10,442 nt of DNA from a candidate division WOR-3 bacterium (GCA_965649115.1 CBFGJN010000063.1:1-10442), one strand, 5' to 3'. Positions 1-10,438 are shown, counted from the first letter of the stretch. Notes: generated by a model not told the origin, from the sequence alone. Numbers and translations: made by a program.

Positions 1-127
1 GGGGGATTATTAGGGGGGCTCTGCCCCCCAAAGCCGAAATATGGGTATTTTAAAGGCGAAGCCTTGAATATAGGGTGGGTGGGAAAATAAAGAAAAATAA
101 ATAATTCCAGAATTATTGGACAAGGCA
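1..127 (+). mobile_element. MITE-like repeat copy A (left end cut off by window edge)
   Basis: Aligns by eye with 1268-1395: GGGGGATTATTAGGGGGGCTCTGCCCCCCAAAG, hairpin AAGGC-GAA-GCCTT (53-65), GGGTGGGTGGG (73-83), right TIR AATTATTGGACAAGGCA (111-127). Confidence 0.8.
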
Positions 128-147
128 TAAGATATAATCCTTAAAGC

Positions 148-157
148 TTTAAAATTT
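148..157 (+). promoter_or_regulatory. Putative -10 element (TTTAAAATTT; hexamer TAAAAT 150-155) for the tRNA-Val/GT2 transcript
   Basis: Same motif lies just upstream of nuoG, ctaB and glmM. An alternative perfect TATAAT is at 133-138. AT-rich background limits confidence. Confidence 0.45.
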
Positions 158-915: not shown

Positions 916-1007
916 AAAGGCTAAAACTGGGTATTTTAGAGGACGTTAGGAAGCCGAAGGCTTAATTTCAGGGTGAGCTGGAAAATAAAGAATTATTGAA
1001 CACAGCA
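916..1007 (+). mobile_element. MITE-like repeat copy B (5'-truncated, degenerate)
   Basis: AAAGGCTAAAACTGGGTATTTTA, hairpin AAGCC-GAA-GGCTT (951-963), degenerate GGGTGAGCTGG, right TIR variant AATTATTGAACACAGCA (991-1007). Confidence 0.72.
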
Positions 1008-1016
1008 AAAAATTTA

Positions 1017-1180
1017 TGCTTTGTCTAGTGATTGATAATCAATCACTTATAAAAAATTCATTGAAATACTTGAAATAATGGGGGGATTAAGGGGGCGAAG
1101 CTTTTAAGGCGAAGCCTTATTTTCAGGGTGGGCGGGCAAAATAAGAAATAATCTATATTTCAGAATTACTAGACAAAACA
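1017..1180 (+). mobile_element. MITE-like repeat copy C (164 bp, internally deleted), flanked by exact 9-bp direct repeat AAAAATTTA
   Basis: Left TIR TGCTTTGTCTAGTGATT (1017-1033), right TIR AATTACTAGACAAAACA (1164-1180); AAAAATTTA at 1008-1016 and 1181-1189. Confidence 0.8.
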
Positions 1181-1189
1181 AAAAATTTA

Positions 1190-1395
1190 TGCTTTGTCCA
1201 ATAATTATTGTTAAATCCTTGATTATCAATAACTTATAAAAGTTTTGAGGAAATTATAGATTTTATGGGGGGATTATTAGGGGGGCTCTGCCCCCCAAAG
1301 GCAAAAAACGGGTATTTATAAGCCGAAGGCTTAATTATAGGGTGGGTGGGGAAAATATAGAAATAATCATATTTTTAGAATTACTAGACAAAACA
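1190..1395 (+). mobile_element. MITE-like repeat copy D (206 bp, full length)
   Basis: Left TIR TGCTTTGTCCAATAATT (1190-1206), right TIR AATTACTAGACAAAACA (1379-1395); IHF-like site, two hairpins and G-tract inside; colinear with the reverse complement of 10235-10438. Confidence 0.85.
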
Positions 1396-1414
1396 AAAAT
1401 TTATTTATTAGAAC

Positions 1415-1424
1415 TTTAAAATTT
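1415..1424 (+). promoter_or_regulatory. Putative -10 element (TAAAAT 1417-1422) 7 nt before the nuoG ATG; leaderless-type promoter
   Basis: ACTTTAAAATTTTCAAAATG with no Shine-Dalgarno; near-identical context upstream of glmM. Confidence 0.55.
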
Positions 1425-5103: not shown

Positions 5104-5530
5104 TGAAAAAATTTTTAAAATAATGTTAAAAGATTGTAAAAAATTATTAAAAAATGATGAAATACCGATTTGTGCTATAATTACTGATGGCAAGAAAATT
5201 ATTTCAAAAGGATTTAATAAAACGAAAAATGATGTTTTAGGACATGCTGAAATTATTGCTATTAAAAAAGCTATTAAAAAGCTAAAAGTTAAATTTTTAA
5301 ATGGTTTTAAAATTTATGTAAATGTTGAACCTTGTATTATGTGTTCTTTTGCTATTGTCCTTTCAAGAATTTCTGAATTAGTTTATGTTTTAAGAGAACC
5401 AAAATTTGGAGGTGTTTATAGTCTTTATCAAATTCCAAATGATATTAGATTAAATCATAGAGTTATTGTTAGAAAAGTTGATTATTTTGAAGAAGAATTT
5501 AAAAATTTATTAAAATTATGGAGAGAATAA
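5093..5530 (+). CDS. tadA: tRNA-specific adenosine deaminase TadA (nucleoside deaminase family)
   Basis: EIPICA, HAE and EPCIMC zinc motifs, EPKFGG and RLNH; TTG start preceded by SD-like GAGGAGGGAG within the rimO 3' end. Confidence 0.82.
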   Translation: MLSDEKIFKIMLKDCKKLLKNDEIPICAIITDGKKIISKGFNKTKNDVLGHAEIIAIKKAIKKLKVKFLNGFKIYVNVEPCIMCSFAIVLSRISELVYVLREPKFGGVYSLYQIPNDIRLNHRVIVRKVDYFEEEFKNLLKLWRE

Positions 5531-6675
5531 TAGTAAAACCTTCAATTAATGAAATTTTAAGTTATCCAAAAATTGTAAGTGGTCATCAACCAATTTTTTT
5601 CTATTATGGAATTCTATTAAAAGCCATTTTATTAAAAAGTCACAAAAATCACTTATTTTTAATTGCAGACCACGATGAAAGGAATGAAATTTACACTTGG
5701 ACAATAGATGATAATTTCAATATCCATAAAATTTCCTTCTTAAAATTTAGTGAAAAAATTATTTTTGAAAAATTTCCATCTGTTAGTCAAAAGCATTTAT
5801 TTAATTTTTATAAGAGTTTCAAAGCATTAACAAATAAGAAATTATTAAAGAAATTAGAATTTGCCTTTGAATTAGCATTTAATTTAGTCAAAGAAGTTGA
5901 TAATTATAGTGATTTTATGATAAGTTGGACATTTAAGTTTTGTAATTTAAATTTAAATGTTAAGAAAGTTTCTGAAATATCAAAAACTGATGAATTTAAA
6001 AATTTCGTTATTGAAGTTTCAAATAGTGATTTTAATAAAAAATTTAATGAAGTTTTGTTAAAACTAAAAAGAAAACCATTTAGATTGCTTAAAGAAAATG
6101 AACTTCCATTTTGGAAAGTTATTAATAATAAAAGAGAGCCTTTATATAAGGATGATTTAAAAAATTTGGATAAATTGGAAATTAGACCAAGAGCTTGGAC
6201 ACTAACATTATTTTTTAGGAAAAATGGATGGGCATTTTTACATGGTAAGGGTGGTTATGGTTATGATAAAATTATTGAAATGATTTTTGATAATCTTTCA
6301 CCAAAATTTCTTATTACAGGTGATAAATTTTTAGATTTAGATATTGAAATTAAAAGTTTTGATGAGTTTTATAAGCTTAAAAATATCATTAGCGATTTAA
6401 AATGGCATTCTGAATACCTTTTTAAGTGCTTTTGTCCCCTAAAAGATATAAATTATTTCTTTAATTGGAATTTGAATTTAGATGAAAACTATTTGAAATA
6501 CGAAAAATTTAATTTGGTTTTAAATAATCCAAAAGCATTTAATTTGATTAGACAAATTAACGAGAAGTTATTTTTTCAAGCAAAAGAAAGTTCAATTTAT
6601 AATTATTTAATTGATTTATATAAAAGAGCTAAAAATTGTTCATTTAGAGAATTTCCATTTTTTATTGTGGTTTAA
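5518..6675 (+). CDS. Uncharacterised protein with GHQP, ELPFW, RPRA and HGxGGxxYD motifs (possibly distant BshC-like nucleotidyltransferase/ligase fold)
   Basis: 385-aa ORF in an AT-rich context, overlapping tadA by 13 nt; motif-like islands IVSGHQPIFFYYG, ELPFW, IRPRAWTLTLFFR, FLHGKGGYGYD. Function is inferred only. Confidence 0.7.
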   Translation: MERIIVKPSINEILSYPKIVSGHQPIFFYYGILLKAILLKSHKNHLFLIADHDERNEIYTWTIDDNFNIHKISFLKFSEKIIFEKFPSVSQKHLFNFYKSFKALTNKKLLKKLEFAFELAFNLVKEVDNYSDFMISWTFKFCNLNLNVKKVSEISKTDEFKNFVIEVSNSDFNKKFNEVLLKLKRKPFRLLKENELPFWKVINNKREPLYKDDLKNLDKLEIRPRAWTLTLFFRKNGWAFLHGKGGYGYDKIIEMIFDNLSPKFLITGDKFLDLDIEIKSFDEFYKLKNIISDLKWHSEYLFKCFCPLKDINYFFNWNLNLDENYLKYEKFNLVLNNPKAFNLIRQINEKLFFQAKESSIYNYLIDLYKRAKNCSFREFPFFIVV

Positions 6676-10204: not shown

Positions 10205-10214
10205 AAATTTTAAA
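10205..10214 (-). promoter_or_regulatory. Putative -10 element (TAAAAT 10212-10207) 8 nt before the glmM TTG; leaderless-type promoter
   Basis: Minus strand reads ACTTTAAAATTTTGAAAATTG; no Shine-Dalgarno. Confidence 0.55.
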
Positions 10215-10234
10215 GTAGAAATTGAAAAATTAGG

Positions 10235-10438
10235 TGCTTTGTCCAATAATTCTGGAAATATAATCATTTCTATGTTTTCCCACCCACCCTGAAATAAAGG
10301 CTACGCCTTTAAAATGCCCATTTTTCGGCTTTAGGGGGCTTCGCCCCCCATCAAAACCCCTCTAAAATCAATAATTTCCTTAAAATTTTTATAAGTTATT
10401 GATAATCAATAACCTAACAACAATTATTGGACAAAGCA
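10235..10438 (-). mobile_element. MITE-like repeat copy E (204 bp, full length, inverted, perfect 17-bp TIRs)
   Basis: TGCTTTGTCCAATAATT (10235-10251) and AATTATTGGACAAAGCA (10422-10438) are exact inverted repeats; the interior is the reverse complement of the copy D layout. Confidence 0.88.

Follow-up and report, generated by a model that had tools for sequence, protein, structure and literature searches.

The window analyzed here, the whole contig of 10,442 bp, contains five copies of a short hairpin in which one stem pair occurs as C-G in some copies and as G-C in others, and it raises the question of whether such a stem is kept for the structure that it forms in a single strand and, if so, whether it works as DNA or as RNA. 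The contig belongs to the genome under study (G000; 1.85 Mb, 27.6% GC, 99 contigs, 94.5% complete), that of a hot-spring bacterium. The initial annotation had placed the hairpins at 53-65 and 1106-1118 (AAGGCGAAGCCTT), at 951-963 and 1320-1332 (AAGCCGAAGGCTT) and, on the minus strand, at 10311-10295 (TAAAGGCGTAGCCTTTA). All five were recovered at these places, and a repeat search put the four plus-strand copies in register. Each of them lies within a copy of a MITE, or miniature inverted-repeat transposable element, where it is termed hairpin 2 to distinguish it from a neighboring hairpin 1. The features of the window that bear on the question are the following.

1-127, plus strand: MITE copy A, of the family defined by nhmmer, cut by the contig start, with the right repeat ending ...GGACAAGGCA at 127
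Internal parts of copy A, plus strand: hairpin 1 at 13-29; hairpin 2, AAGGC-GAA-GCCTT, at 53-65; G-box at 72-83
147-157, plus strand: promoter-like CTTTAAAATTT, with TTTAAAA 20 nt past the right end of copy A, 14 nt before tRNA-Val (171-244)
916-1007, plus strand: MITE copy B, right half only, directly past the stop of a GT2 gene; hairpin 2, AAGCC-GAA-GGCTT, at 951-963
1008-1016, no strand: 9-bp spacer AAAAATTTA between copies B and C, a reused target duplication
1017-1180, plus strand: MITE copy C, a deletion form of about 164 bp with both inverted repeats; hairpin 2, AAGGC-GAA-GCCTT, at 1106-1118
1181-1189, no strand: second 9-bp spacer AAAAATTTA, between copies C and D
1190-1395, plus strand: MITE copy D, full length, 206 bp (self-match 100%, 94% to C64)
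Left parts of copy D, plus strand: left repeat TGCTTTGTCCAATAATT; palindrome TTGATTATCAA at 1219-1229
Right parts of copy D, plus strand: hairpin 1 at 1280-1296; hairpin 2, AAGCC-GAA-GGCTT, at 1320-1332; G-box at 1339-1350; right repeat to 1395
1414-1424, plus strand: promoter-like CTTTAAAATTT, with TTTAAAA 19 nt past the right end of copy D; ATG of a NuoG-like gene at 1430
10205-10215, minus strand: promoter-like CTTTAAAATTT, 20 nt beyond the right end of copy E, before a phosphoglucomutase-like gene (10198-8900)
10235-10438, minus strand: MITE copy E, full length; hairpin 2, TAAAGGC-GTA-GCCTTTA, at 10311-10295

Hairpin 2 is an internal module, at model positions 130-142, of a non-coding MITE of about 205 bp. 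In 79 pattern-defined copies the modal length between anchors was 202-204, many copies were flanked by clean target-site duplications of 9 bp (for example TCAGAATTT, GAATTAAAT and ATTTTTCTG), and the terminal inverted repeats measured 17-19 bp, with a profile consensus of TGCTTTGTCCAATAA... on the left and ...TTAYTRGACAAAGCA on the right. The copies in the window contain no ORF of at least 60 amino acids. A profile built from 46 full-length copies was run over G000 and returned 731 matches, which cover 96,049 bp or 5.2% of the genome; copies also stand at 83 of the 198 contig ends. The sequence AAGSSGNASSCTT occurs 331 times in G000, compared to about 0.4 occurrences expected from base composition, with 324 sites inside MITE matches and the other seven in MITE fragments. 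Shorter forms of approximately 163-178 bp are deletions between both hairpins at a common GCGAAGCC core, and they retain both ends together with target duplications of their own. Among the 217 copies with two ends, nine have gaps in hairpin 2 and 77 in hairpin 1; for the G-box and the left palindrome the counts are 20 and 17. These figures carry a bias because the profile alignment anchors on GC-rich blocks. The family is very abundant, and hairpin 2 is its most consistently retained internal module.

Among the genomes searched, the family is confined to the genus: it was present in all four other genomes of the genus and in none of 26 genomes outside it. Public loci with the hairpin motif came from one Candidatus Hydrothermia bacterium MAG in 46 of 53 cases, the other seven being single chance matches. 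A 360-kb sample of a sister species (G002) gave 48 MITE matches. Three of nine syntenic sites, defined as arrays with both flanks on one G000 contig, were filled in G002 and empty in G000, from which it follows that the element moved after the two species split. Contigs of four DNA runs compared with the window showed repeat pile-ups and chimeric joints at MITEs, with no usable empty-site joint. Literature searches on this lineage and its miniature inverted-repeat elements found no description of the family, and, to judge by title and abstract, the papers found on bacterial MITE stem-loops with compensatory change do not concern such a hairpin. Fragments of the element keep the right end in 246 cases and the left end in 100, an excess to be expected if insertion of new copies takes place on the promoter side and the older copies upstream decay.

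Given its terminal inverted repeats and its target duplications of 9 bp, the element appears to be moved as double-stranded DNA by a DDE transposase. The ends may be of the IS5/IS903-like type, which combines a 9-bp duplication with GGCTTTGT-type ends. In the 94.5% complete assembly of G000 (99 contigs), DDE_Tnp_1 (PF01609 and PF13737) had no match, and PF01609 was found in none of the four other genomes of the genus. An autonomous partner with the same ends was sought in the same assembly (94.5% complete, 99 contigs) among ORFs bounded by inverted repeats, split matches and multi-copy ORFs, and none was found. Ten inverted-repeat-bounded regions with ORFs all lacked matching duplications, the split-match candidate for a parent was an ordinary gene between two MITE fragments, and multi-copy stretches of about 1 kb were ordinary paralogs. 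The DDE_Tnp_1 loci of relatives have no similar ends, and their proteins match only neighboring genes in G000. The ISAba12-like repeats (GGCTTTGTTGCACAAA; Table 2 of PMC6382973, partial text) and the ends of the present element (TGCTTTGTCCAATAA) have only the GCTTTGT core in common. MITEAba12 resembles the present element in being non-autonomous, DDE-moved and flanked by 9-bp duplications, and differs in its size of 113 bp, its AT-rich core and the absence of a target-site trend in the available part of that source (PMC6382973), whereas the element described here homes to promoters and has no parent IS in the genome or genus searched.

We used the hairpin 13-mer in ungapped form, present in 558 of the 731 MITE matches, as the base of the stem and loop counts. 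The compensatory C-G/G-C swap that had been proposed from the window copies holds across this set. Pair 4 (133-139) is C-G in 359 copies, G-C in 142 and something else in 57, with 363 C-G and 147 G-C in the count made for the column-pair controls; pair 1 (130-142) is A-T in 534 and G-C in 11, pair 3 (132-140) is G-C in 509 and A-T in 18, the closing pair 5 (134-138) is C-G in 455 and T-A in 14, and pair 2 is A-T in 544 with no alternative state. All five pairs are Watson-Crick in 396 of the 558 copies, and sliding the 3' arm by 1-3 columns lowered pairing from 94% to 6-59%. At pair 4 the fraction of doubly changed copies is 0.26, a value reached by none of 464 complementary column pairs 4-14 nt apart and by none of 540 G/C control pairs. 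Doubly changed copies number 19 at pair 132-140, 14 at 134-138 and 11 at 130-142; the corresponding fractions are reached by 42, 57 and 67 of the 464 control pairs, and those of pairs 3 and 5 by 11 and 22 of the 540. The ratio of doubly to singly changed copies at pair 4 is 2.4, compared to approximately 0.5 in the best control pairs. A test on 41 sequences (the five window copies and 36 from the unselected G002 sample) gave 96.6% of cells paired, compared to 87.8 ± 1.3% in shuffles, and a covariation score of 0.192 compared to 0.057, with none of 500 shuffles reaching either observed value and all slid registers collapsing; two pairs vary on both sides in this set, which 17 of the 500 shuffles equaled. 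These results confirm that the covariation of hairpin 2 is real, and that it concerns essentially one pair, with two or three others contributing weakly.

The further proposal, that the covariation reflects selection preserving the structure, holds insofar as the arms stay complementary, but few old changes lie behind the signal. The stem G/C columns are off consensus in 7.4% of cells, compared to 7.6% for background G/C columns and 16% for the loop. In diverged copies the stem was intact at 0.72 and 0.52, compared to 0.50 and 0.29 predicted from background divergence, values that are subject to the same anchoring of the alignment on GC-rich blocks. Nearest-neighbor energies of the hairpin are modest, ranging from -3.4 to -4.9 kcal/mol at 37 C, and are alike on both strands.

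The loop had been described as changing while staying GNA. This is the case in 426 of the 558 copies (76%), and the other 132 include AAA, TCC or TCT (22 together) and GTC loops; the full distribution is GAA 375, AAA 59, GTA 44, TCC 14, GTC 11, TAA 8, TCT 8 and rarer forms. A C-G closing pair, counted separately from the loop, is present in 455 of the 558. Loop positions 1, 2 and 3 are at consensus in 80%, 81% and 90% of copies, and a specific conservation of G-N-A is thereby not supported, since the middle base is kept as well as the G and the loop varies more than the stem does. The strand of the loop is fixed, with 375 GAA and no TTC. Judged by sequence, the C-G-closed GAA loop is of the type found in unusually heat-stable DNA mini-hairpins, which include GCGAAGC and CCGAAGG types (PMC13037366, partial text). 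According to the same partial text, the GCGAAGC mini-hairpin melts at 76.5 C and the CCGAAAGG tetraloop variant (GAAA loop) at 65 C, values that do not refer to the triloop CCGAAGG core found here, which is absent from the table portion consulted. Copies with an AAA loop would be expected to lose the special stability, since mini-hairpins with a loop without G showed no melting (PMC13037366, partial text).

The best explanation of these observations, which combines the MITE identity with a mechanism and to which we give an even chance, is that hairpin 2 acts as a cis-module of the element, being neither a host signal nor an HUH site. A cis-role for the element is the best single reading; the DNA-hairpin mechanism itself, which we infer, comes slightly short of an even chance. 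The element would travel as double-stranded DNA via a DDE transposase, and the hairpin arms would pair within one DNA strand whenever the duplex opens, in replication, in transposition or by cruciform extrusion. Complementarity of the arms would be kept first by templated copying, from arm to arm and from the neighboring hairpin 1, and second by the multiplication of copies with an intact stem. A stem-loop had been thought unexpected for a DDE-type MITE, a view that does not stand, since stem-loops are usual in bacterial MITEs (PMC10969869, partial text).

Hairpin 1 bears on the origin of the swap and on whether hairpin 2 has any function. It has the form GGGGGGC-NNN-GCCCCCC (13-29 and 1280-1296; model 90-106), and in 307 ungapped copies its loop is hypervariable, with loops in reverse-complement pairs (GAA 58 and TTC 38, AAA 47 and TTT 31, TCT 41 and AGA 9, TCC 15 and GGA 13), as is the mark of a DNA palindrome whose loop flips frequently. 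In its G-C variant, hairpin 2 has the apex GGC-GAA-GCC, identical to that of hairpin 1, and 26 of 142 hairpins of this variant have the pyrimidine-first loops typical of hairpin 1, compared to 6 of 359 of the C-G variant (p = 2e-10). This enrichment of hairpin-1-type loops in the G-C form suggests templated copying, and the "compensatory" swap may be one such copy from hairpin 1. Within single elements, identity of the two loops was not enriched (8 of 71 for the G-C variant, 29 of 172 for the C-G variant), and the backing for exchange between the hairpins comes down to the enrichment in loop type. A micro-inversion as the origin of the swap was rejected, as it would give a TTC loop, found in none of the 558 copies.

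The number of events behind the swap was assessed from linkage, from a tree and from the sister species. The state of pair 4 has at most 0.12 bit of mutual information with any other column, compared to 0.86 between the two paired columns, and recombination can explain the missing linkage because linkage across the family is local only, so that the family is a mosaic. A tree of 146 near-full copies has 35 changes of pair 4, compared to 37-44 among the ten listed of 200 shuffles; the tree holds almost no signal for the state of this pair, and in a mosaic family it does not tell a large number of events apart from recombination. The 38 hairpins of G002 include 16 AAGCC-GAA-GGCTT, seven AAGGC-GAA-GCCTT with a further three carrying AAA loops, three AAGCGGAAGGCTT and one AAGCTGAAAGCTT, and this species thus has every one of the variants C-G, G-C, G·G (AAGCGGAAGGCTT) and T-A. 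Since the two species have the same set of variants, each variant seems to go back to a single old event, with amplification afterwards. The initial annotation had held that descent of the two variants from one ancestral event resembling a micro-inversion would undo its case; both variants occur in both species and one old event is probable, while a micro-inversion is excluded.

The same data also fit a reading in which the hairpin has no function, and its complementarity goes back to a founder palindrome and is maintained by ancestry, recombination and template-switch correction of quasi-palindromes. We consider this reading unlikely, though it is the strongest of the alternatives. It accords with the variants common to the sister species, with the common local context found in each of the minor compensated classes, as if each came from one event, and with a mosaic family in which linkage is only local. 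It also accords with stem G/C sites conserved no better than background and with the frequency of A/T swaps of compensatory look among arbitrary column pairs. Among three insertion sites shared between species of the genus, one pair of apparently orthologous copies has changed in only one arm, with G-C in one copy and C·C in the other. A point against the cis-module reading is the uncompensated G·G variant of the closing pair, which has 24 copies in G000 and is also found in G002, so that copies can spread with this pair broken. Against the absence of function stand the excess of doubly over singly changed copies at pair 133-139 relative to the best controls, the retention of hairpin 2 in 208 of the 217 two-ended copies as opposed to the frequent loss of hairpin 1, and the loop, which flips in hairpin 1 but never in hairpin 2.

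We also examined the position of the element relative to genes and promoters. The motif CTTTAAA[AC]TTT occurs 626 times in G000, compared to 27 expected; the genome-wide set shows no -35-like consensus upstream, and an ATG lies 4-9 nt past the end of the motif in 364 cases, which suggests that leaderless or near-leaderless mRNAs are the rule in this lineage. Of 312 right ends of the MITE, 111 are followed by a TTTAAA[AC] whose start lies at a distance of 19-21 nt, which is exactly 20 nt for 86 ends; for 29 the distance is 11-13 nt, and 74 have another copy about 9 nt further on; the 263 left ends have no distance peak to this motif. Copies A, D and E of the window follow the 19-20-nt distance. 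With genes taken as long-ORF calls, 245 MITE matches in spacers between same-strand genes are co-oriented with the genes and 20 are opposite, and 471 matches point at the following long ORF from its 5' side, compared to 103 that do not. The MITE thus usually lands in one orientation 19-20 nt upstream of the CTTTAAAATTT host promoter motif. Insertion upstream of promoters at a set distance and orientation is known from TnGBS, ISLre2 and ISKra4, in which unequal end repeats decide the orientation (PMC3942029, partial text). The transposases of these elements are Mutator-like, and insertion takes place 15-17 bp upstream of sigma-A promoters (same partial text), whereas the element described here has putatively IS5/IS903-like ends, a 9-bp duplication and a promoter motif without a -35 box. 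Insertion of this kind explains the orientation bias of the hairpin strand, and the bias need not mean an RNA function.

An RNA stem-loop is another unlikely alternative, in which the MITE is co-transcribed with its neighbors or reads into them and the hairpin serves as a stabilizer, a processing site or a weak terminator, as in Correia, ERIC and SPRITE elements. The co-orientation with genes and the strand-fixed loop speak for it, as do the MITE transcripts with stem-loops and RNase processing documented elsewhere (PMC10969869, partial text). The orientation is, however, explained by targeting, as seen in the distance peak of the right ends and its absence at the left ends; the 9-bp site is reused in stacks of copies, and orientation through unequal end repeats has precedent in promoter-targeting transposons (PMC3942029, partial text). 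The element is sited upstream of the promoter, so that only read-through from the preceding gene covers it, and the T-run after the stem (columns 143-148) is poorly conserved. An intrinsic terminator was rejected, with no terminator-like site in 1-1500 and weak conservation of columns 143-148. Mismatched cells in the stem are G·T in 50 and A·C in 50 cases, and nothing points to RNA because an RNA stem would be expected to tolerate wobble on one strand. Like the flipping loops of hairpin 1 and the loop enrichment of the G-C variant, these equal counts point to changes made in the DNA. An Rfam covariance-model search of the window passed only tRNA-Val, with the elements giving chance-level matches at E <=5, and the fold of the whole element did not surpass those of shuffles (z = -1.1). 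The hairpin might act as RNA, but none of the results is positive evidence of this. Of the earlier suggestion that the hairpin works as single-stranded DNA, as a cruciform or as RNA, the complementary arms and the fixed loop strand are upheld, and the equal mismatch counts go against the RNA part.

A more specific DNA reading, which we regard as improbable, would make the mini-hairpin a heat-stable single-stranded signal that the element requires for priming or to transpose to promoters. Extrusion would occur on the G-rich strand, and the reader of the signal would be the transposase or else a primase or polymerase of the host. It builds on an analogy: the CCGAAGG hairpin of RSF1010 ssiA is read by the RepB' primase (PMC13037366, partial text). 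The d(GCGAAGC) and d(CCGAAGG) cores of phage G4 and RSF1010 ssiA are identical to those found here, GCGAAGC in copies A and C and CCGAAGG in copies B and D, and the hairpins of both sides combine a C-G closing pair with a GNA loop (same partial text). Those of G4 and RSF1010 act in single-stranded replication origins and are read by primases (PMC13037366, partial text), whereas the present hairpin lies inside a double-stranded DNA transposon, 132 of 558 copies have no GNA loop, and the likeness is one of sequence.

The annotation had further linked the hairpin to HUH enzymes. REP/RAYT and IS200/IS605 elements resemble it in having short and abundant hairpins, and the stable-type hairpin with a conserved loop in hundreds of copies makes for a resemblance, and only that. 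To our knowledge, HUH elements of these types make neither terminal inverted repeats nor target duplications, they carry their hairpins at the ends and they need a Y1 gene. A single-stranded site for an HUH (Y1) enzyme is highly improbable here and was rejected, as the element has inverted repeats and 9-bp duplications, its hairpin sits mid-element (positions 130-142 of 205), the motif never occurs alone outside the MITE, and the 94.5% complete genome has no PF01797 match. The search of G000 for a Y1 transposase gene scored five candidates for Y1_Tnp (PF01797), and none passed.

The preferred reading, a cis-module of a DDE-moved element, places the hairpin among known kinds of MITE stem-loop. 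Correia/NEMIS, ERIC, RUP, BOX and SPRITE elements are likewise small, non-coding and high-copy, with inverted repeats and target duplications, and they are intergenic, often just upstream of genes, with internal hairpins (PMC10969869, partial text). Compared to Correia-type MITEs, the present family has a 9-bp duplication and putatively IS903-like ends, makes up 5.2% of the genome, stands at a set distance from a promoter motif and in a set orientation to it, and has a hairpin in which a C-G-closed GAA triloop goes with a compensated pair that is polymorphic. What is new is the combination of a promoter-homing carrier with a DNA mini-hairpin sequence and such a pair.

Families present in hundreds of copies per genome offer a natural experiment on structure selection and mutation bias, and the two neighboring hairpins behave in opposite ways here: hairpin 1 flips its loop freely, whereas hairpin 2 never flips, has a compensated pair and is hardly ever deleted. 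If hairpin 2 is needed in cis, the element would have a structural requirement that IS5-type elements are not known to have, and it could help explain how the family finds promoters. If it is read as a single-stranded signal, a DDE-type MITE would rely on the structure of a single strand. Should hairpin 2 prove dispensable, the family would be a clean case of apparent covariation produced by templated copying between hairpins, and a warning for covariation-based RNA discovery in repeat-rich genomes.

Several other features of the element and the window were recorded. The G-box AGGGTGGGTGGG (72-83 and 1339-1350; model 149-160) is highly conserved, with G columns at 94% consensus, and 223 of 225 exact GGGTGGGTGGG sites lie inside MITE matches. 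Counted with the GGG at model 118-120, this box brings the G-runs of one strand to four, hairpin 2 lies in the long loop between them, and a G-quadruplex might form. An internal box of the MITE, AACTTATAAAA(A/G)TTTT (1231-1246; model 41-58), resembles the host promoter motif in the same direction and could be an internal promoter or a targeting mimic. At 5518-6675, an ORF of 385 amino acids with deaminase-like and UbiA-like genes on either side had no Pfam match at E <=1e-5. The GT2 glycosyltransferase frame (248-913) is open from 248, four bases past tRNA-Val (171-244), and its Pfam match begins at residue 5, yet the first ATG, GTG or TTG is at 467; the gene thus seems to start at a non-standard codon adjoining the tRNA.
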